Below, one piece after another: positions 1,518-58,400 of a stretch of 64,000 nucleotides of DNA; the stretch's first letter is position 1; every line of letters begins with the position of its first letter. Origin of the DNA: a virus. The position numbers and the translations under genes were made by a program. The notes beneath the pieces were generated by a model, which had not been told where the DNA came from, did not search any database, and saw only the letters and a list, made by a program, of their open reading frames with translations. Location of the stretch: IMG/VR virus record IMGVR_UViG_3300028044_000003, positions 32,001 through 96,000 of that record, one strand, 5' to 3'.

Positions 1518-1943
1518 ATGAAAAATTCGTTAAAAGCTATCTACATTGATAGCAACCCACAGACAGGCGTTAATTTCTTCGCCATTGATAGCGACAACCA
1601 AGCCCTTTTGGATAAGTTCCAAAAAGCCCGTGGTAAGTACGCTAGTACCATTACCGATGAATTTTCGGATTATTTCGGTATGCCGAAGTACAGTACGAAA
1701 TTCAAAGCCGCGGATTTTAACATCGGTTTTTCGGAAAGTGGTAAAATAATCCACTTAGAAGACGAAACCGATAAGTTAGTCAAACTAGTGGGTACCTATC
1801 AGGGTGCGGTGGCTGATAAACTTGCGGATAGGGTTGCTGACCTAATCTTCAAGCAACACACCAAGAAGGCTACTGTAGCACCACCTACACTAGAACAGCC
1901 TGAGTTCGTTCCAAGCGAAAATGATGCCGACTTTGAAGATTAG
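1518..1943 (+). CDS. early protein with acidic tail, paralog of 2388..2882
   Basis: 141-aa ORF ending ENDADFED. Confidence 0.8.
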   Translation: MKNSLKAIYIDSNPQTGVNFFAIDSDNQALLDKFQKARGKYASTITDEFSDYFGMPKYSTKFKAADFNIGFSESGKIIHLEDETDKLVKLVGTYQGAVADKLADRVADLIFKQHTKKATVAPPTLEQPEFVPSENDADFED

Positions 1944-1949
1944 TCATTG

Positions 1950-1985
1950 GGTAGCACGTCAATACGACGTGTTACCTTTTTTTTT
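1950..1985 (+). terminator. intrinsic terminator
   Basis: GGTAGCACGTC-AATAC-GACGTGTTACC plus T9. Confidence 0.7.
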
Positions 1986-1986
1986 C

Positions 1987-2007
1987 ATATCAACCTACCT
2001 ATTAGAA
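1987..2007 (+). promoter_or_regulatory. repeated early promoter-like motif, copy 6
   Basis: ATATCAACCTACCTATTAGAA. Confidence 0.6.
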
Positions 2008-2042
2008 TACAACACAGCCACGTCTCCGACCAAGAACATGAT

Positions 2043-2325
2043 CTTGTTCTAGGTCTTGTATCAAGATCTGAGCCCTCCTCCAGAACTAGTTCAAGATTAA
2101 CGATTAGAATCCTCTATTCCATGTCTTGGAGAGGTTTTTGTTCTTGTAGACTAGTCTCACGTTTTAGATCTCTAGGAGAGTCTAGATCAAGTTACTTGAG
2201 TCCTCTGTCTAGATTCCTAGATTCCAAGATTTTTTTCATATATACCCTACTTTTTAGAATCCAAGGGCTTATGTCCTAGAACCTAGATACAAGAGCCTCG
2301 TACCTCGATCTAGACCTAGAACAAG
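2043..2325. repeat. CTAG/CWWG-rich segment bounded by a 14-bp inverted repeat
   Basis: 11 CTAG in about 270 bp; CTTGTTCTAGGTCT (2043-2056) and AGACCTAGAACAAG (2312-2325). Confidence 0.7.
2238..2259 (+). promoter_or_regulatory. variant promoter-like motif, copy 7
   Basis: ATATATACCCTAC-TTTTTA-GAA after a T run. Confidence 0.5.
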
Positions 2326-2387
2326 TTCCCGAGTCATTTACACGTTTCATTTTTCATTCACAAATCCTAAAAAACAAGGAGGACACC

Positions 2388-2882
2388 ATGAGCAATTTAA
2401 TTGCTAAGTATCACGACTCTTATAAGAGCGTACAAAAAGACCCTAAAACCGGTAAAGAGATACTGGACGAAAACGGGCGCAAGATCTTGACTGCAAAATT
2501 CATCTACACCGTTGACGGTGAAGAAGAAGATGTTCAAAGATACTTGGACATCAAAGCGGACGAAGGTTACGACATGTTCGACCAGGCCTTGGGTAAAGTT
2601 CTGTTCTTTACACCACAGTTCCACGGTAACGACATCGAGTTAAAGATCACTACGAACGACAACATCGTTGTTGATACTAGTGAAATGGATCGCGTTAAGT
2701 CGTTCGTAAAAGCGAACGGTGGCGATTGGGGCCAGGTCGTAACCCAGAAAGCGTTGGCCGAACTAAACTTCGGTAACATCTTCGCTGCTCCGGCCAAGAA
2801 ATCTGTTACTAAACCTCAACCAAAGGTAGAGGAAAAAGTTACAGGTGAGGATAACGGGCCAGAAGCGGATTTAGAAAACTAG
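2388..2882 (+). CDS. early protein with acidic tail, paralog of 1518..1943
   Basis: 164 aa; AGGAGG upstream; ends EADLEN. Confidence 0.85.
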   Translation: MSNLIAKYHDSYKSVQKDPKTGKEILDENGRKILTAKFIYTVDGEEEDVQRYLDIKADEGYDMFDQALGKVLFFTPQFHGNDIELKITTNDNIVVDTSEMDRVKSFVKANGGDWGQVVTQKALAELNFGNIFAAPAKKSVTKPQPKVEEKVTGEDNGPEADLEN

Positions 2883-3238
2883 TTATATGAATTAGTTGTG
2901 GTTCATAAGTGATTGATAGTGAGAGAGTTGGAGAGGTATTGTTACCTCACCCTCTTTCATTGTCCACTTAATTGTACGAGAATCAGAACTGGGCGCCCGG
3001 CGCACCTCATAGCTAGTCTCTAAGAGAGTAGATACACTTATACTTGAAACACTATACTCGTTATAGTGTTTCTCGTATACTTGTTTCGTATACTCACTTA
3101 CTTGTTTTATCATTTACTTGGTTCTTGTATCTGGTAACCGAGGGTTTGATTCCTCTTTCTTTTATTTTAGTATCCAGGTGATTAAGGCGTGAAAATCGTG
3201 CGTTGATTATTAATCAGGTTCACCAAATCCTTCTATAT

Positions 3239-3622
3239 ATGATTTCACCTATCATTACTCTTTCTAACGATAAGAAAGTTATAAACTTTTCGTCTCCTCA
3301 TGATTTTCATTTTGTTGATGGTACTATTTTACCCAGGATATCTGACGAAGATGCCGAGCGTTTAAAAGTAACATTCATCGAAAATGTACATGATAATGGC
3401 GATGTTGAGTTATCCTTTACCCTGGGTCCAGAAGTACATACCAGGATGATGGAATGTAAAACGTTATGGGATAATGATCTAGTAGACGTTGTTTACTGTC
3501 CGTTACCTATGATTACCGCTCTCAAAGAATCCGGGTATGATCTCAAAAACTCTCCGTTTCGAGCAATTCGTGTTGAAGACCGTATCAAAAAACTTGTCTC
3601 TATCGACAAACAATGTATTTAA
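3239..3622 (+). CDS. hypothetical protein
   Basis: track ORF 3203..3622; ATG at 3239 preferred. Confidence 0.75.
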   Translation: MISPIITLSNDKKVINFSSPHDFHFVDGTILPRISDEDAERLKVTFIENVHDNGDVELSFTLGPEVHTRMMECKTLWDNDLVDVVYCPLPMITALKESGYDLKNSPFRAIRVEDRIKKLVSIDKQCI

Positions 3623-3637
3623 GAAATAACAAACCAA

Positions 3638-3694
3638 AGAATAGTTCAGCACATTTCAAACATCAATCTGCTAAATTGAATTGTATCTATTCTG
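3638..3694 (+). ncRNA. TCAGCA stem RNA copy 1, with a Ser(GCT)-like anticodon arm
   Basis: AGAATAG/CTATTCT-G stem, TTCAGCACATT, internal TCAAT-CTGCTAA-ATTGA. Confidence 0.6.
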
Positions 3695-3704
3695 TATTTG
3701 TTAG

Positions 3705-3732
3705 TAACCCGTCTCTTTTAGGGATGGGTTAC
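3705..3732 (+). terminator. hairpin, possible terminator
   Basis: GTAACCCGTCTC-TTTA-GGGATGGGTTAC; no good U tract. Confidence 0.4.
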
Positions 3733-3864
3733 ACATCTTAAGCGTTTCCAGGAAACAGGTACTGGTGTAAAGTCCCGATGAAACCAATCTCTGACGTGTC
3801 GAGAGTTTGGTGATATATCCGGTAAGCATGGGAAACGTATTTTTTTACTATCTTAATCTCCGAT

Positions 3865-4053
3865 ATGAAAAATAATTTTGCTTTTAGATTAGTCTTACTA
3901 ATCGTAATGATTCTTCTTATATCTGCTCTGTACCTTACTTTTATAAGATTCGGATATATTACTTGTGTTGATAAAGCCGGTTCTAATCAAAAAAAACTTT
4001 GTGCTTGTGAAGTAAAATGGTTAGATAAAGATAATAATTGTGGGTTTGAATAA
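3865..4053 (+). CDS. small Cys-rich membrane protein
   Basis: TM helix followed by YITC...CAC...C. Confidence 0.7.
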   Translation: MKNNFAFRLVLLIVMILLISALYLTFIRFGYITCVDKAGSNQKKLCACEVKWLDKDNNCGFE

Positions 4054-4146
4054 ACGGTAAACATTGATCCGGAAGGTTTCTCTTCAAAATACGCGGTGAA
4101 AATCGCGACGTACATGTCCCCTGGAAAGGACGGTTTTTATAATTGA

Positions 4147-4213
4147 TATTTAACCTGGAAGTGTGCGAATGAGTTCCAAGCTTGACCCTAACGTAAAGTC
4201 GAGGGTGCTAATA
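4147..4213 (+). promoter_or_regulatory. structured leader motif copy A
   Basis: GAGTTC..AGC..TGACCCT...GGGTGCTAATA, shared with 11709-11816; 15 nt to ATG. Confidence 0.5.
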
Positions 4214-4228
4214 CTAAACTTTTATTAC

Positions 4229-4663
4229 ATGAATTTGAAAACACAAATTATTGACAAATTATTCTCAGGAAACGAACATGAATTGGACGCCTCAGAAAGA
4301 GTATTTATTGCTAAGTCTTTAAGTACTACAAGTAAAAACTCTATTTTAGAATCTATTACAAATAAAGGTACGTGTGACAAACATAATAAAAATTGTCAAC
4401 ATGTAGCTTTAGATTTAACTGATGAAGAAATGAATAATCTTCAAAAAAAAGCTTTTGATACGATAATTACATCAGCTTCTTTAGAAGATGTTTTAGTAAC
4501 TTTTATCAGTGGTTTAAAAGATTCTGAAATAGTTTATCTGTTAGATCTAAGTTTTATCAATCTTGCTCGTATAGAAAAAAACGAAAGAATGTCTAAAGAT
4601 TTGAATTTATTAGGAGATAGATTAAGAAAGTTAAAAGATTTTTTAGATAAAAATAATAGTTAA
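4229..4663 (+). CDS. hypothetical protein
   Basis: track ORF 4163..4663; ATG at 4229 preferred. Confidence 0.75.
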   Translation: MNLKTQIIDKLFSGNEHELDASERVFIAKSLSTTSKNSILESITNKGTCDKHNKNCQHVALDLTDEEMNNLQKKAFDTIITSASLEDVLVTFISGLKDSEIVYLLDLSFINLARIEKNERMSKDLNLLGDRLRKLKDFLDKNNS

Positions 4664-4681
4664 CTTTTAAAACCTAACTTT

Positions 4682-4882
4682 ATGACAAAAAGAGATATCA
4701 ACCAGACAATCAAAGATTTGAAAAAAGAGATAATTAAATTATCTTTACAGGAAACTCGTTTAAATCATGAATCTGACGATTATTACGAACAGATTTCTGA
4801 GATTAAATCGATGAAAGAAGAATTTAATGAAGAAATAAGTTTGCTAACTTTAGAGTTAAGTGAGCTTGAAGTTAAGTATTAG
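4682..4882 (+). CDS. small coiled-coil protein
   Basis: 66-aa ORF with heptad pattern. Confidence 0.7.
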   Translation: MTKRDINQTIKDLKKEIIKLSLQETRLNHESDDYYEQISEIKSMKEEFNEEISLLTLELSELEVKY

Positions 4883-4901
4883 ATTTGGTGAATAATACTA
4901 A

Positions 4902-4959
4902 GGGATGTTTCAGCACATTATAAAAGCCAAAATTGAGGATTTTGTTTTATTACATCCCG
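4902..4959 (+). ncRNA. TCAGCA stem RNA copy 2, with a Leu(GAG)-like anticodon arm
   Basis: GGGATGT/ACATCCC-G stem, TTCAGCACATT, internal CAAAA-TTGAGGA-TTTTG. Confidence 0.6.
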
Positions 4960-4990
4960 TTTTTTATTATCTAAATTCTAGTAAAAATTC

Positions 4991-5040
4991 AGCGGAAGTT
5001 AAGTCGGTAACTTCAGTGGTTCGAATCCACTTCCGCTACA
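4991..5040 (+). ncRNA. mini tRNA-like RNA (acceptor stem plus T arm)
   Basis: AGCGGAA/TTCCGCT-ACA; GTGG-TTCGAAT-CCAC; one short internal hairpin. Confidence 0.65.
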
Positions 5041-5134
5041 ATTACCTTAATATCCTATAAAAGATAGGTGGTAACTTTAAAGTATCCATCACGTCAGTAA
5101 TGACGTACCAAGATGGGTCTTTGCCCGGGTTTAA

Positions 5135-5234
5135 AGGTTAGATCAGCAAATTACATCTACAAACATGTATTAGTTTAGTTGTAAAAGGGGGAAGTTCGTA
5201 ATCGTCAATTTGATGAGCGAATTAAACTAACCTG
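5135..5234 (+). ncRNA. TCAGCA stem RNA copy 3
   Basis: AGGTTAG/CTAACCT-G stem, ATCAGCAAATT, internal hairpins. Confidence 0.55.
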
Positions 5235-5314
5235 ATTGCCCAAAAAATTCGCTCTATCGATTTGATAGAGCGGATTTCCCTCTCATTATTTTGTCACCAA
5301 ATCAATTACCAAAT

Positions 5315-6691
5315 ATGAGTTTATTAAATGCTATGAGAACTAAAGATTCTCTAACCAACAATGGTGCTGTTACTAACAGTACAAGTCTTAACTTTTGTTT
5401 AGACATGTTTTTCCTGGCCGGAGCTTCGCGTAATATGTCTGAAGAAGATATAATTCTAGTATTCGAAAGAGCTTTTGGTCAAAACCCTTTGACAACAATT
5501 AGAGTGTTGTTCTGGGCCCGTGATGCGCGTGGAGGTGCTGGTGAGAAAAGATTCTTTCAGATAATCTTATCACATATTCAGAAAACTTATCCGGATGTAT
5601 TTACCAAAATATATCCATTAGTTTATGAATACGGATATTTCAAAGATCTCTTCAAGATGCGTCCTACACAGGAGTTATTAAATTACTTTGCCTGGGCGTT
5701 GAGTCATCATCCTCAAAGAAATCTTCTGGCTAAGTATTTTCCTCGTAAAGGGAAATGGTTTAACTCTTTTCGTATCCACCAGGAAGAAAAGCCTAAGACG
5801 CTTAGAAAGTTTCTCGTAGAGATGACCAAAGTAGTTGAGACACAAATGTGTAACAACGAATGGGATGCTATTGAGTACTCTAAGGTTCCGTCTGTAGCCA
5901 TGAGAACTTACGCTAAGTCTTTTGGTAAACATGATTATCCTAGATTCAGTCAGTACATCCAGGACGTACTTAAAGGTGATAAGAAAATAAACGCTTCGGT
6001 GTTATTTCCTAATCAACTTTACAGAGCGTATTTGATGAATGAATCAGAAGATCAGGTTCAGGCTCAGTGGAACGCGTTACCAGATTACCTTACTAAGTCG
6101 GAAAATCATCGTATTTTACCGATATGTGACGTATCGGGAAGTATGTCAGGTTTACCTATGGAAGTATCTGTTTCCCTGGGGGTATATATTAGTGAAAAGA
6201 ATCGAGGTATCTTCAAGGATGCTTTTGTTACTTTCTCTAAAGACCCTAAAATACAGATACTACAAGGTAATCTTTATCAGAGATTTCGTCAGTTAGATAC
6301 TGCAGAATGGGGTATGAATACAGATTTAAACGCTGTGTTTAGTCTTATTCTAGACTCGGCTGTAAGAGAGAACTTACCAGAAAACGAGATGCCGACATCA
6401 CTTCTTATCATATCCGATATGGAATTTGATAGTTGTGGTAAACTTTCTAATCTTGATTCGTTGCGCGAAATGTATTCTAGAGCCGGTTACAAATTACCTT
6501 CAGTGGTATTTTGGAACGTAAACGGTAGACTGAATAACGTTCCGGCTACAATGAACGATAAGGGAGTGGCTCTTGTAAGTGGGTTTAGCCCTTCAATACT
6601 GACGTCAGTTCTTGATGGTACAGTTACAGATCCGGTATCGATGATGCTGAAGGTGATTAATTCACCGCGGTACGAACAGGTAGAGCTGTAA
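5315..6691 (+). CDS. DUF2828-type TROVE/Ro60-like protein with C-terminal vWA domain
   Basis: RDARGGAGEK, YSKVPSVAM, MIDAS DVSGSM, ISDMEFD, VFWNV, LVSGFSP motifs; ATG 5315 preferred over TTG 5291. Confidence 0.85.
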   Translation: MSLLNAMRTKDSLTNNGAVTNSTSLNFCLDMFFLAGASRNMSEEDIILVFERAFGQNPLTTIRVLFWARDARGGAGEKRFFQIILSHIQKTYPDVFTKIYPLVYEYGYFKDLFKMRPTQELLNYFAWALSHHPQRNLLAKYFPRKGKWFNSFRIHQEEKPKTLRKFLVEMTKVVETQMCNNEWDAIEYSKVPSVAMRTYAKSFGKHDYPRFSQYIQDVLKGDKKINASVLFPNQLYRAYLMNESEDQVQAQWNALPDYLTKSENHRILPICDVSGSMSGLPMEVSVSLGVYISEKNRGIFKDAFVTFSKDPKIQILQGNLYQRFRQLDTAEWGMNTDLNAVFSLILDSAVRENLPENEMPTSLLIISDMEFDSCGKLSNLDSLREMYSRAGYKLPSVVFWNVNGRLNNVPATMNDKGVALVSGFSPSILTSVLDGTVTDPVSMMLKVINSPRYEQVEL

Positions 6692-11831: not shown

Positions 11832-12203
11832 ATGATAGAAAAAGAATTTGTGCCACATCAAGAAAGTCTTGAACTCGAAGAAATTGGTTTTAATGAACCT
11901 TGTTTTGGATATTGGAAATCTAAAAACTGGCTAATCCAAGAAAAAACAAGAACTGATGGATATACACATGCTGACCAAGAATGTTTAGCACCAACATACT
12001 CACAAGCATTTAGATTTTTTAGAGAGAAGCATAACATATCAAGTTGGATATACAATAGTGATATGATTAATTTCTTCTACACCATATTACAAGGTGGAAG
12101 AATTGTTAAAGCAAATAATTCTTATGAATCCTACGAAGAAGCAGAACTTGAATGTCTTAAAAAATTAATTGAAATTGTAAAAGATGGTAACAAGAGTAGA
12201 TAG
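11832..12203 (+). CDS. phage hypothetical protein
   Basis: KEFVP..SLEL..IGFNEPC...APTYSQAFRFFREK...YEEAE, a pattern recalled from Bacteroidota phages. Confidence 0.7.
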   Translation: MIEKEFVPHQESLELEEIGFNEPCFGYWKSKNWLIQEKTRTDGYTHADQECLAPTYSQAFRFFREKHNISSWIYNSDMINFFYTILQGGRIVKANNSYESYEEAELECLKKLIEIVKDGNKSR

Positions 12204-12709
12204 AAAGTCTATGGTTATAAGACCGTCAGGAAGAAGTACTGATTTTCTTACTCCCACAATAATTATGGGGTGTGGTTATCAGTGCTCTTACTGTTATTGT
12301 AAAAGATATAAAACAGAAGGTGTAGATATTGCTACTAATTTAGGAGATATACTTACTACAGTAGATCATCACGCTTGGTTTGCCGATGTAGAAAAACCTA
12401 ATCAAACTCATCCGAAATTTATAACTTACGATATAGGTTGTAATTCTGATATGGCTTTACACGCTAAACACTATGACTGGAAATACTTGTTTGATTTCTT
12501 CAAGAACCATCCTCGGGCTATGGGTTCATTTGCTACTAAATATGTGAATGAGAAACTGCTTGAATATAATCCGGATGGTAAGATTAGAATCAGATTTAGT
12601 CTGATGCCTCAATCTTATTGTGATTATTTAGAACCTAAAACTAGTTCTATAGAAGAAAGAATAAAAGCTATCGATAGGTTTATAGAAGCTGGTTATGATG
12701 TACACATAA

Positions 12710-13305
12710 ATTTTTCTCCTGTTTGTTTGAGCAAATGTTGGATTAATTACTTGTGAAAAATATGTTTCTGTAGTTCCAGTGATACTTCTAATATCAGTTA
12801 AACCTTGTTTTTCTAATTCTTCTATATGTTCAATTAATGATTCACCTAACTTTGTTTTATTTTCAATATTATCTTCATTTTCAATTCTTTCTTTAATGGA
12901 TTCAATAATTTTTTTCTCTTCGTTAATGTTTAATATATCATACTTTTTAGAATACTCACTTTGAGTTGAAATTATTCCTGTCGATAAGTATTGAATATCA
13001 TTTAAATTTATTGAGTCATTACTGCTTATTCTTTGTTTCCACCTTTCCAATGTTAAATGAATTTCACTTACTCTTCTTAAAATTTTTATTGTGTCAAAAT
13101 GTCCATTAAATTCTTGTAATATTTGACTAATTGCAAATCCTATAAATAATTTAGATAACAATTCTAAAATCATATTACTGTCACCAAAAAAATGTATTAA
13201 AATTGAAGATAAAATTGGTATCCAAACCAATGGTTTAGCTAAAATCTAAGGATAATATTTGTACTGTTTACAAACCCTTTCTTTAATTTCTTCTAATCGT
13301 CTCAC
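12710..13305 (-). pseudogene. cassette-borne membrane/coiled-coil protein, 5' part
   Basis: GTG at 13305, TAG at codon 20 (13246-13248), hydrophobic N-terminus; its 3' end lies at 13532-13496. Confidence 0.65.
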
Positions 13306-13345
13306 AATCTTTTTTATTTTATTCGTTAATTTCTGTTGTCCTTTA

Positions 13346-13494
13346 AACTGACCGCCAACGGTTCTTGTGTATGTGTCAGGTGGGGATTAGAAAGCACAAA
13401 ACTTTCAACACTCACCAAAGTTTATTAACATCCACAACCGTTCAATTTACCACCAAACCCCCACTTGCACATACACAATGTTGGCGGTTCGGTT
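13346..13494. repeat. attC-like long imperfect palindrome
   Basis: ACCGCCAACG-gttc-TTGTGTATGTG-t-CAGGTGGGG ... CCCCACTTG-CACATACACAA-TGTTGGCGGT. Confidence 0.75.
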
Positions 13495-13870
13495 TTTATT
13501 TCTTCTTTTTATTCTGTCTTTCATTTTCTCTCATTTTTCTCCTGTTATCGTAACATACGGTTGGATTAAAAAATATGAAGAACTTTTTAACCAAGTTTCT
13601 GATATAGTAGGAAATAAAGATAAGATCAAAGCTGAAGTAATCTTCTTGACTCACAATGAAGGTAAACATGAATATAATCTTAGACATTCTTTACCGGGAG
13701 AACATCTTTTATGGAGACCGGAACTCCAGGAAGATAAAATATCACAGTACGGTGGTAAAAATATAAGGTATAAACACGACCTAAAAGCTCAGTATATCAA
13801 AGAGTGGACTGAATTACATGATAAGATTATACCCTGGAATACTATAAGATATATTTTTTAAAAAACTATT

Positions 13871-23082: not shown

Positions 23083-23708
23083 ATTATCCAAAACCCATAA
23101 GCCCGCAAGAAAAAAGGGAAAACGCGGCTGAGATGAGAAAACATCATGAAAAAACATTTGAAAAACTCGGTCTTCCAAACGCTTATTTTTTACCCAAACT
23201 AGCTTTTGTAAAAAAAACTGGTGATGTGTCTAAAGTTATTTCATTTTTTATAAGCGAACTTAGAAGAGCTGAAGATATTTATATCGAATTTGCTTCTAGT
23301 AATAACACTGTAGAAGATCCTGAAAGAAGGTTATGGAAATGGAGGTATAATCCTCATTTTCAAACCGAATATGAAGCTAGACCTTTAGAGCAAACTACTG
23401 GTTTTTATTATCTTATACCTATTACAGAACTTATTGAAATACAAGTTCCTAAAGATGAACCAGTTATAAAACAACTAGAAGTTAAAGAAAAAATTAGTAC
23501 AAAAGATTTTGAAATAGGTTCTGAAAAAAAAGAAAGTATACCTGATCAAAATACAATTAAATCACCTAAATTTACACACGAGGAAACTTGTCGAATTGTA
23601 GATCTGGATGCTCGTGATTTTGCTTGCTTATATTTGAAAGTTCCGGAAAGTTCTTACGAATGGCTTAACGATCTTATTACCAAGCATAGAAAAGAAAATT
23701 TACTTTAA
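23079..23708 (+). CDS. hypothetical protein
   Basis: 209-aa coupled ORF. Confidence 0.75.
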   Translation: MNYPKPISPQEKRENAAEMRKHHEKTFEKLGLPNAYFLPKLAFVKKTGDVSKVISFFISELRRAEDIYIEFASSNNTVEDPERRLWKWRYNPHFQTEYEARPLEQTTGFYYLIPITELIEIQVPKDEPVIKQLEVKEKISTKDFEIGSEKKESIPDQNTIKSPKFTHEETCRIVDLDARDFACLYLKVPESSYEWLNDLITKHRKENLL

Positions 23709-24481
23709 TGAACGAAATTGTATTACCAACAACTAAGATACCGGCTTCTATAAAGAGTCCTCGTAATCTTATTATTCTTTCTAAGCCTAAAACAGGTAAA
23801 ACAACTCTCTTAGCAGAATTAGATAATTGTTTAATTCTTGATCTTGAAAAAGGTACAGACGGTATTGACGCTATGAAAATTCATGCGTCAAGTATTGAAG
23901 AAATTAAACAAATAGGTGAAGCTATTAAGAAAGCTAATAATCCTTATATGTATATCGCAGTCGATACTGTAACGGCTTTGGAAGAAATGTGTATACCTTA
24001 TGCTGAAAAGCTTTACGCTAAGACAAGTATGGGTAAAAACTGGTTTAAGAAAAAACCGGATGGAACCCTGGCTGAAGATAGTGGTAAAGCTACTTATAGT
24101 AGTATACTTAATTTACCCAATGGCGGTGGTTATTTTTATCTTAGAGAAGCTTTTACTAAGGTTGTAGAATTTATCAAAACATGGGCCCCAAGAACTATTC
24201 TTGTAGGACACGTTAAAGATACTTTGCTAGACAAAGCTGGTGTAGAAGTAAGTTCTCTTGATTTAGATTTAACTGGTAAATTAAAAAGAATAAGTACCTC
24301 ACAGTCGGACGCGATAGGTTATCTCTATCGTAAAAACGGAGTTAATAAAATAACTTTTAAAACTACTGATGAAATTGCATGTGGGGCTCGCCCTCCTCAT
24401 TTAAGAAACGAAGAATTTGTTATCTCTGAATTAAAGGATGACAAACTAGTTACTTATTGGGACAAAATTTATATTGATTAA
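23708..24481 (+). CDS. AAA_24/Sak4-like P-loop ATPase (recombinase)
   Basis: KPKTGKTT, LDLEKG, IAVDT, LVGH. Confidence 0.85.
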   Translation: MNEIVLPTTKIPASIKSPRNLIILSKPKTGKTTLLAELDNCLILDLEKGTDGIDAMKIHASSIEEIKQIGEAIKKANNPYMYIAVDTVTALEEMCIPYAEKLYAKTSMGKNWFKKKPDGTLAEDSGKATYSSILNLPNGGGYFYLREAFTKVVEFIKTWAPRTILVGHVKDTLLDKAGVEVSSLDLDLTGKLKRISTSQSDAIGYLYRKNGVNKITFKTTDEIACGARPPHLRNEEFVISELKDDKLVTYWDKIYID

Positions 24482-55400: not shown

Positions 55401-58400
55401 CAATACCGCCTAATCTTTCAGCTATTTGACCAAATATATTAGTTAAGTCTTTATCACCACGTTTAATTATATTCTGATACATTTTATCAAAATCTAAATT
55501 ATTTTGTGTAGCGGTGATAGCTTTATTCCAGGCTATGTTAAAAGGAATAAACTTTGGAGTACCGTAACGATTTACTTTTAATACTTTTCTGTCTTCTTTA
55601 ATATCATAGTCTATCATAGTACCTAACATAAATTGAATTTCTTCAAAGGCCAATTCCTGGGTAGACTTATCGATACCTGTTCTGTCAGCGTACTCTGAAA
55701 AACCTTGTTCTCGTTTTTCAGCTTCTATAGCATCTTGTTCTTCTTGTGTTAGATTTTCTTTAACTGGTTGTTTAGCAGCTTCTTTACTTTTTTCCTCTAA
55801 TAAATCTTTAGCTTTTAGAGGGATGATATTAGATTTTCTTATATGATAATTTATTAAACCACCTTTACTACTGTTAAGATTATCTAATATATTATCAAGA
55901 TTTCCAAAATTATCAATAGCTAAAGACAATTCTTGAAACTTATTTAATAATAAACTATAAGCATCAGTATTAGTACTAGTATTTTTAAGTTGTAAATTGG
56001 TTAACGATCTTAACAACTCAAGATCTGATTTAACTATCTGGTATGCTTTTTTTAATTTTTCAGGATCGTTTATATATGTTAAAAAATTTCCTTCATAATT
56101 TTGTTTACCAATAACTGGTTCAAGATTTACTATACTATTGTATATTTTATCTTTATAAATTTTTTGTTCGTCTGTATCAGACGGTAAGTTATTATATTTA
56201 TTTATAATTGCTTGAAGCTGGTCTTTAGTAAATGTTTTTGTAGCACTTGAATAATTAATTTCAGTATTATTAACTACTGCAGAAAAATAATAATCCATAC
56301 TAGATAATATTTCTACACTAGAACCACCTAAAAGAATATTTTCTTGTTTTTGATTATCAGTTTGATAAGTCTTTGGTCCTTCGTAAGCTAATGAATCAAA
56401 CCTTTTAAAGTTATTCCAGGAAAAAGGTTGTTCAAACAAAGGCCCTTTACCAGTATTTAGCTGTTCGTACATATTATAGAGATATGGTACCGATGATTGT
56501 CCTTTAGCTAAATCTATAGTAGTTAGATTTTTAAATAACTCAATTAGTAGATCTTTAATTTTTCTGAATATATCTTTCTTAGCAGGGGCTTTTACAAACT
56601 CACCTTTACCTGTTAACATGTATTTTCTAAAATCTTCAGCTAAATACTCTTCTAACTCCAGGTCTGAAGCTTTACTAAATTTTACAAAAGAACCAGTATG
56701 GGTTTTAAATACTCCAGGTAGTTTACGAGCTTCTGAGTAAAGCTTATCTTGTTGTTCTTTTGTTAATAGGGTTTGAGTAAATATATGCCAAGCTTCGTGA
56801 TACAAATCAGTAGAGTCAGAACCCATGTATAAAGTAACGCCGGCTCTATTAAACTCAGCTACTTTTTCCATGTTCATAATACTCCTCATATCGTTCATCT
56901 TCCAAATATCGGAAGCCATTCGTGCTGCTGGATGATTAGCAAACCATTTATTAGCTCTTTCTTCGTATTGTTTTAAATCAGAACCTAACTGATTTTCAAG
57001 AGCTTTCTGAGTATTGTTTTTATCAAGTCCTAATAGTTCACTTAATAAATCTTCATCTTCATCAGGTTTTACCTCTAGTATAGTTTTATTCTCAAAAGTT
57101 ATGTAGGGATTATAGAACTTAACTTTATTATCAATAGAAGTATAAAAAGGTAAAGTAAAATTGTTTTTTATAAAACTACGATAAGAGATTACATTATCTA
57201 TTATTTGATTCTGGTCGTTTATTTCAAAATCATTAATCATGAAATTTCGAACGCTTTCTTTAATATGCAGTTTAGCTTTTTCTATAACATAAAATTTATC
57301 ATTAAACTTAAATACATCATTTACCTTTAGTTGGCTTTCAGAAACTACTTTACCTTGTAATAAAAATTTACCTTCAGAAAAACTGTAAGGTTTATTTTTA
57401 TAATTTTCTATTTGTAAATCACTTAAGTCTTCTTCTTTATCGGTTTTAGGGTTACCGTGTAGACCGTTAAAGTATTTTTGTAAAGCTTCAACAAATTTTT
57501 CTTTATTTATTTTTTCAATTTTGTTACCAATAACTTGTTCAAAAATAAAATCGTTATTATTATTTCTCTTTAATATAAAAGATTGAAAATTAACGGTTAA
57601 TAATAAGTTATTATCTTTAATAGTTAATTGAAAACCAGAACTTGCTTTAATATTAATAAACGTTTCAATTATATCTTTAATTTCTGAATTAACTAAAACC
57701 TTATCCGAACTATCTGTTACTTTTTCAGTTAAAAGTTTTGTTATGTTTTGAGCATATTTAGAATCAAAAGTTAATTCTTTTCTTTCGATAGTAACCGGTA
57801 TATTTAAAGTTGCTGTCTGATGCTGAATAGTTACCTCACCGTTATTATTTATTGTATAATTAAAAGGTATTTCTACATTATTAACTTTAAAATCTATATC
57901 AGATAATAGTGTATAATCATTTTTATCATCTTTTCGTATAACAGTCCCATAACTACCACCCACTATATTAAAAGATTCTTTATAACCAACTTCTTTATTT
58001 TCAAGATATTTGAATGTTTTATAAAGATCTAGTAACTGGGATTTTATTATAGAATCAACTTCTTTTGTTTGTTCGTTTTTAAACGTACCCTTGATATTAT
58101 AAACTTTACTTAATTCAATAACTACTGTACTATATACATTAGTTTTAGAATTATTAAACACTGTATCATCTATTACATCTATACCTAGTTCATCTTGTTT
58201 AACTAAATCAGATAATTTAACTTTAGAGTCAATCCCAAAAGAACTTAAATTAAAAGGATTTGTCTTTTTAGATTGGCCCGTTTTATTACTTATATCAAAC
58301 GTATCTGTGTTAAAAAGAATTTCTGTATCATCTTCAAAAGCAAATGTAGAATAGTAGTTATTTTTTTCTTTAACAATAATTACTTTTACTTTTTTATCAA

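Follow-up and report, generated by a model that had tools for sequence, protein, structure and literature searches.

How did a gene cassette come to lie inside a gene of a phage that encodes no recombinase to move it, and why does the cassette's own gene begin on one side of a recombination hairpin and end on the other? The DNA analyzed here (the window, 64,000 nucleotides) corresponds to bases 32001-96000 of a 111.5-kb IMG/VR record with an estimated completeness of 93%. Genes around the insert lie nearly all on the + strand and have replication and repair functions, and its neighbors encode an ATP-dependent ligase, helicases, a DnaB-like protein, a Toprim protein, and UDG. Because no tyrosine or serine recombinase was found in the whole 111.5-kb record, the phage looks lytic. 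Searches of the phage for RecT, ERF, and RecA homologues gave no match, and the only recombination-type candidate found was an AAA_24 (PF13479) protein at 23708-24481 (66 bits). The AAA_24 family includes Sak4-type annealing recombinases, and a Sak4-like annealing activity is predicted for the phage protein. Elsewhere in the window, a DUF2828/DUF7788 protein (Pfam match) is encoded at 5291-6691, and three consecutive giant ORFs of 3093, 4289, and 1490 aa occupy the minus strand at 37204-63840.

The split radical-SAM gene and its insert

The insert and its flanks comprise the following features, where R1 and R2 are the two covariance models described below.

12184-12723, + strand: 5′ part of the radical-SAM gene, codons 1-180, which reads on into the insert to a stop at 12756; match to the spore-photoproduct-lyase (SPL) family PF20903, E=2.4e-16
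12710-12723, no strand: left 14-bp repeat copy, the crossover identity (repeat family D3, 100% identical)
12724-13305, − strand: cassette gene codons 1-194, GTG start at 13305; homologues P0002-P0004
12737-12746, no strand: second in-register identity, GTTGGATTAA, with its partner at 13560-13569 (repeat family D12, spacing 823)
13306-13350, − strand: leader between the hairpin and the gene start, with a conserved TCAGTTTAAA motif beside the hairpin base
13351-13490, + strand: recombination hairpin, ~140 nt; 121.7 bits with R1, whose training set includes this site, and 85.8 bits with R2
13496-13532, − strand: displaced 3′ end of the cassette gene, the last 12 codons plus TAA (...NRRKMRENERQNKKKK* in the ORF list), matching the tails of P0002, P0003, P0004, P0006, and P0007
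13533-13546, no strand: right 14-bp repeat copy (repeat family D3)
13547-13861, + strand: 3′ part of the radical-SAM gene, codons 181-284; C-terminal PF20903 match

The original prediction held that an 823-bp insert splits a radical-SAM gene and that its removal gives a continuous 284 aa, and both points were borne out. The ORF at 12184-12756 (+) represents the N-terminal two thirds of the SPL family, the ORF at 13478-13861 (+) matches its last third, and deletion of 12724-13546 (one repeat copy plus 809 unique bases) yields a 284-aa SPL-like radical-SAM protein. Across residues 1-284, this restored protein is colinear with its counterpart in every related viral locus fetched (80/80), and the insert is present in none of these loci (0/80). 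The closest relative, with ~91-93% DNA and 95% aa identity, has the empty site with a single base difference.

Both states of the locus were recovered repeatedly. Exact copies of the truncated 190-aa left-junction product were found on 8 other contigs and of the right-junction 127-aa ORF product on 10 (sources JGI, Logan, and ENA), the broken cassette protein is encoded on 12 contigs of up to 113 kb, and 8 contigs carry intact 284-aa alleles from the same 90% cluster. Since junction products and intact alleles both recur, the occupied and the empty allele are both natural, and the chimeric assembly that had been raised as a concern is excluded at the contig level.

As first noted, a perfect 14-bp direct repeat, ATTTTTCTCCTGTT, flanks the insert at 12710-12723 and 13533-13546 with a spacing of 823. 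The shared sequence is longer than those 14 bp: a second identity block, of 10 bp, starts 13 bp beyond the first, in register, and together the two form an imperfect repeat (27/37) between the cassette and the phage target. By a rough estimate, the chance of the extra 10-bp block in AT-rich sequence is ~1e-4. Although exact 14-bp matches between insert and phage are not unusual in themselves, this repeat is not a chance one: its two copies mark the precise ends of an insert, and taking that insert out restores a conserved gene. Comparison of the re-circularized cassette with the restored phage genome gave six exact matches of at least 14 bp (18, 15, 15, 14, 14, and 14), of which the junction identity is one and not the longest. 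Homology alone therefore falls short of a full explanation for the choice of site, given the 18-bp and 15-bp matches elsewhere in the genome.

One gene and one ~140-nt hairpin make up the insert, and their order is circularly permuted: tail, hairpin, head. The gene's tail, MRENERQNKKKK plus the stop, is encoded at 13532-13496, on the opposite side of the hairpin and adjoining the right repeat. Re-circularization joins the minus-strand frame into NRRK-MRENERQNKKKK*, as had been proposed, with a length equal to that of NRRERREIERQNKKKK in homologue P0002. Whether homologues continue into the displaced tail had been set beforehand as a refuting test, and they do: P0002, P0003, and P0004 have the same K-rich tail at the same spacing, P0002 aligns residue for residue with the rejoined tail, and seven family members end in a K-rich tail. 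P0002, P0003, and P0004 are 65-84% identical to the cassette protein, start with MRRLEEIK, and are encoded on contigs of 1.7, 4.9, and 21.6 kb; P0006, P0007, P0008/P0010, and P0011 are ~30-40% identical to it. Full-length homologues begin at the equivalent M and end in a short basic tail.

The predicted frame of 211 codons from the GTG at 13305 is thus right as to its in-frame joining and wrong as to its being open, since codon 20 is a TAG (13248-13246) where all homologues have W. Recoding of TAG was considered and rejected, because of the W at codon 20 in homologues and because other genes end normally. The cassette gene is a pseudogene twice over, by the TAG and by the split. In agreement with the original prediction, Pfam and further annotation searches of the insert found no recombinase and no transposase, and no Rep is present in it either.

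The cassette-protein family is small, with five 50%-identity representatives in 1.84 billion proteins. The intact 210-aa protein is predicted to be all-helical (mean pLDDT 74); its N-terminal part is hydrophobic as judged by eye, and a conserved ITGTT-x-x-YF motif lies near the basic tail. Searches for a function in Pfam, PHROGs, PADLOC, ESM Atlas, and Foldseek/PDB gave no match. Relatives were absent from the viral, metagenome, and genome contig collections except for the distant P0011 (Bacteroidota MAG), there was no match in the phage or plasmid collections, and a search of 400 Bacteroidota genomes gave no convincing further match. The upstream read-through of P0002 and of P0008/P0010 translates exactly as site base plus leader, which suggests that these genes also lie behind such a site. 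Based on what such arrays are reported to carry, our guess is that the cargo may be a membrane-anchored accessory, defense, or immunity-type protein.

This distant homologue (~30%) was examined in its own surroundings, at L082:4212-11574 in Bacteroidota MAG JANNBB010000053. It lies within nine co-directional genes that have no Pfam match, a run with a T9SS-type metalloprotease gene at one end and a gene for a Por_Secre_tail protein at the other. Near this homologue, the one whose DNA was examined, no hairpin site was found.

The hairpin family, its arrays, and its closest relatives

The palindrome noticed in the insert is a real structure: it matches R1 at 13351-13490, and its RNA fold has -58 kcal/mol (z = -4.6). 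A search of the DNA against Rfam gave chance-level matches only. R1 is a covariance model built with the window hairpin in its training set; R2 was built from 15 chromosomal Bacteroidota sites only, with the window hairpin left out. R2 matches the phage at 13351-13490 over model positions 1-140 (85.8 bits, E=2e-17), and with either model the window hairpin is the only match in the whole 111.5-kb phage. Specificity was judged by E-values and by 430 kb of related phage DNA, in which the only matches lie in two relatives, L033 and L034.

The hairpin is built of an outer R helix (ACCGCCAAC/GTTGGCGGT), an AACG...TGTT core, an asymmetric spacer of 5 nt on one side and 1 nt on the other (GGTTC vs T in the window), a long inner stem (11 bp in the window), and an A/C-rich loop. 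The core is nearly invariant across the family sites. The window hairpin and five sites of another phage, L086, share a consensus structure with compensatory change in 17 of 27 pairs; in an alignment of 31 sites, pairing holds in 91.5% of cells and 20 of the 27 pairs have changed on both sides, with a covariation score of 0.639 vs 0.165 when shuffled and at most 0.108 when the partners are slid. The window hairpin belongs to a family of ~140-nt cassette sites in Bacteroidota. Three other large phage contigs have the base and leader motif, GTTRGCGGTCAGTTTAAA, at sites of their own. Within the loop, a sub-motif AT(T/A)AGAAAGC...CTTTC, which forms a small internal stem-loop and is followed by an A/C-rich stretch (13385-13412 in the window), is common to the window site, the L086 site at 2034-2171, and chromosomal sites of genomes G044, G045, and G080.

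Cassette arrays of such hairpins beside a tyrosine recombinase had been expected in Bacteroidota, and R1 sites together with PF00589 genes reveal them in Bacteroidota chromosomes. R1 matches are present in 65 of 151 evenly sampled Bacteroidota genomes, many of which have long co-oriented arrays. In G013, G124, G048, and G001, the array directly adjoins a PF00589 recombinase gene, and a broken recombinase copy lies near the array of G080. The G013 array (C12:208066-227853, of which L097 covers 219000-228800) has at least 21 sites and the G124 array (C1:115564-147117) at least 16, and each ends at an Xer/IntI-like recombinase that scores below the curated integron-integrase cut-offs. For the recombinase at L097:8327-9367, these scores are 202.8 with TIGR02249 (cut-off 265), in two stretches, and 128.8 with PRK15417 (cut-off 435). 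The array-adjacent recombinase is a member of the Xer/IntI clade. In the arrays of L097 and L098, most cassette genes are downstream of the recombinase gene and run in its direction; in the G013 and G124 arrays, some of the cassettes at a distance from the recombinase have the opposite gene orientation.

Over 10-17 nt, the outer arm of each array site can pair with the outer arm closing the site before it. Such cassette-wise complementary ends were found in 9 of 9 consecutive pairs in L097 and in most pairs in L086, which implies exchange at the conserved core. In the window hairpin, the two outer arms (ACCGCCAAC and GTTGGCGGT) are complementary to each other. This is the state expected of a cassette closed on itself, and a tandem pair gives the same state. 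The relative orientation of gene and site in the window cassette is the one that predominates beside the recombinase in G013. Arrays are thus a trait of the family, and the window copy is solitary, in a phage without a recombinase.

Site clusters were found with R1 in three phage records without recombinase. L086 (IMGVR_UViG_3300049199_000005), one of the three contigs with the base and leader motif, is a 36-kb record rated 100% complete. At 1695-5203, its small ORFs are separated by co-oriented ~138-nt hairpins, at least seven in number, and no PF00589 recombinase was found in it. Site spacings and site lengths give L086 units of ~360-850 bp, to which the 823 bp of the window insert is comparable. 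The L086 cassette between 4195-4332 and 4554-4695 has nearly the same ends as the window cassette, with different contents and a much shorter length. In L034 (2396-2790) and L033, a full family site lies ~470 nt upstream of an intact radical-SAM gene (72% identical). There, a 96-aa ORF starts inside the site loop and a matching half-site, GCTGGTAAC, ends the cassette; these phage relatives thus carry cassettes inserted through the proper site. The 137-kb phage G403 has two sites in opposite orientation ~100 bp apart, at C1:56470-56609 (−) and 56722-56821 (+) (L085 region; L087), and next to them a short ORF that begins with MKNKIQQ extends through the site base. The opposed pair may represent a nested or docking arrangement. 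The distribution of the site family in Bacteroidota genomes and the family site in L033 and L034 support the predicted Bacteroidota host.

The description of the insert as an integron-like cassette stands. As in integrons, each unit of 0.4-0.9 kb has one ORF and one imperfect-palindrome site, the site has AAC...GTT triplets at its base, an asymmetric unpaired spacer, and a variable loop, its outer arm is complementary to the end of the preceding site, and the array lies beside a tyrosine recombinase of the Xer/IntI clade. This is not a classical integron, however. The recombinase falls below the curated IntI cut-offs, matches the models in two stretches, and is co-directional with the cassettes, whereas classical intI is divergent, with attI and Pc in between. 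Compared with the attC consensus RYYYAAC / GTTRRRY, only the AAC/GTT triplets of the window sequence CGCCAAC / GTTGGCG fit. In addition, the window cassette did not enter through its own site. Circular cassette intermediates of integrons were reportedly described by Collis and Hall in 1992.

The closest published relative of the cassette system is rAID-1 (recombinase-associated acquired interbacterial defense) of Bacteroidales. In rAID-1, an XerD-like tyrosine recombinase is followed by co-directional small genes with repetitive sequences between them, a layout that reminded its authors of integrons (Ross et al. 2019, bioRxiv 10.1101/471110). The rAID-1 definition also asks for a recombinase more than 44% identical to BF9343_RS08045 of B. 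fragilis. Compared by layout, L097 and L098 are alike in having a 5′ XerD-like recombinase, at least two co-directional genes, and repetitive intergenic sequences. The two differ in that the available part of the rAID-1 paper describes no ~140-nt hairpins with cassette-wise complementary ends, no circles, and no phage-borne copies; rAID-1 cargo relates to interbacterial-toxin immunity, whereas the window cargo has no recognizable immunity match by Pfam, PHROG function, PADLOC, or fold.

Classical attC sites with cassettes have also been described from lytic phages without integrase (Qi et al. 2023, PMC9892861). The sites in L086, G403, G404, and L034 resemble these in being cassette sites in phages without integrase. 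Those of Qi et al. are classical attC, inserted or arranged via the site, whereas the window cassette is permuted and bounded by short homology outside its site.

Entry of the cassette into the phage

We consider it probable that a circular cassette was captured by short homology, off its site, into the phage radical-SAM gene. The insert would be a complete mobile cassette, a ~210-codon gene plus a ~140-nt recombination hairpin, derived from a Bacteroidota cassette-array system, and it would have existed as a closed circle in the infected cell. The circle would have recombined once with replicating phage DNA, either in a reciprocal crossover or by copy-choice through one full turn of the circle. 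The homology used for the exchange would have been short and imperfect (14/14 bp, 27/37 overall), matching the final codons of the cassette gene to codons 176-188 of the phage gene. A crossover there, 43 nt outside the hairpin, would linearize the cassette inside its own gene and leave the order tail, hairpin, head, with no need of a site-specific recombinase. Both genes would have been destroyed; the cassette gene would later have gained its W20-to-TAG mutation, and the insertion would have become fixed in one phage lineage as sister phages kept the empty site.

This sequence of events is suggested by a crossover off the hairpin, the 27/37 homology, and a phage without integrase. The exchange point does lie 43 nt beyond the intact hairpin, in line with the proposal that crossover took place outside the recombination site. 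With its 14-bp identity and in-register 10-bp block, the homology at the crossover goes far beyond what an unrelated site-specific event would show, and we infer that the mechanism was driven by homology. In Campbell-type integration of small circles by short or imperfect homology, a kind of illegitimate or relaxed homologous recombination in phages, one exchange with a linear or replicating genome leaves the shared sequence duplicated on both sides of the insert, as it is in the window. Here, in contrast, the circle would be not a plasmid or a piece of prophage but a gene cassette that depends on a recombinase.

Some details of the junction recall the sites themselves. Both partners end their identity in ...CCTGTT, and T-GTT is invariant across the family sites where exchange is predicted to occur; in the phage target, GTTA-TCG-TAAC is similar to the conserved site core, and the second identity block starts with GTTGG, like the R' box of the cassette itself. 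These details would fit a host array recombinase acting in trans to join pseudo-sites in the cassette coding region and the phage gene, by analogy with the secondary-site (GWT / attG) integration of integron integrases. We regard such an event as unlikely. Known secondary-site events use the folded site of the cassette as one partner and would linearize the cassette at its hairpin, but here the hairpin is intact and 43 nt away. Tyrosine recombinases need identity only in the 6-8 bp overlap, and an exchange between pseudo-sites leaves 14 contiguous bp and a further 10 bp of identity unexplained. The resemblance of the motifs was also noticed after the fact.

The donor may instead have been a head-to-tail repeat, that is, adjacent cassette copies or a concatemer, that entered by double crossover or template switching. 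Its product would be topologically identical to that of circle integration, but two exchanges at the same short sequence would be needed instead of one, and the arrays inspected (L086, L097, and L098) contain no adjacent identical cassettes; we judge this quite unlikely. Very improbable is an origin as an assembly chimera or as an intron, homing element, MITE/IS with target-site duplication, or autonomous mini-replicon, for which the bare flanking repeat is the only point in favor, against exact junctions on 8-10 contigs of up to 113 kb from several sources, chance-level Rfam matches, insert ends that on reading have no terminal inverted repeats, an insert without transposase or Rep, and a gene split across the two ends, which an element with a target-site duplication would not have.

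Among specific candidates, a group I/II intron or homing element, a MITE or IS with a 14-bp target duplication, and an Obelisk-like or satellite replicon were each considered and dropped. An IS110-type bridge-RNA element was rejected as well, as there is no recombinase and no complementarity between hairpin and target by eye.

Implications for cassette movement

A permuted gene order is the product of a circular or tandemly repeated donor and cannot arise from a single-copy linear stretch. The permuted copy therefore provides evidence, at the level of sequence, for an excised-circle intermediate. The new element appears to be the off-site capture in permuted order, for which such an intermediate is the best explanation. 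A literature search of incomplete coverage turned up no account of the hairpin family or its circles, nor, to our knowledge, is there a published demonstration of how the cassettes of these arrays move. Bacteroidota are reported as almost empty in integron surveys (IntegronFinder 2.0 surveys found almost no integrons in Bacteroidetes), yet 65 of the 151 genomes sampled here carry the hairpin family.

Altogether, we lean toward reading this insert as the first natural footprint both of non-IntI Bacteroidota cassettes existing as free closed circles and of recombinase-less lytic phages capturing circles anywhere by short homology. With both genes broken, the event leads nowhere in itself, and its value is as evidence of a mechanism. 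If this reading is true, host cassettes would have a recombinase-independent route by which to enter phages and spread. Cassettes could then reach lytic phages without a dedicated site or enzyme, which would bear on how defense, immunity, and accessory genes spread between hosts and phages.
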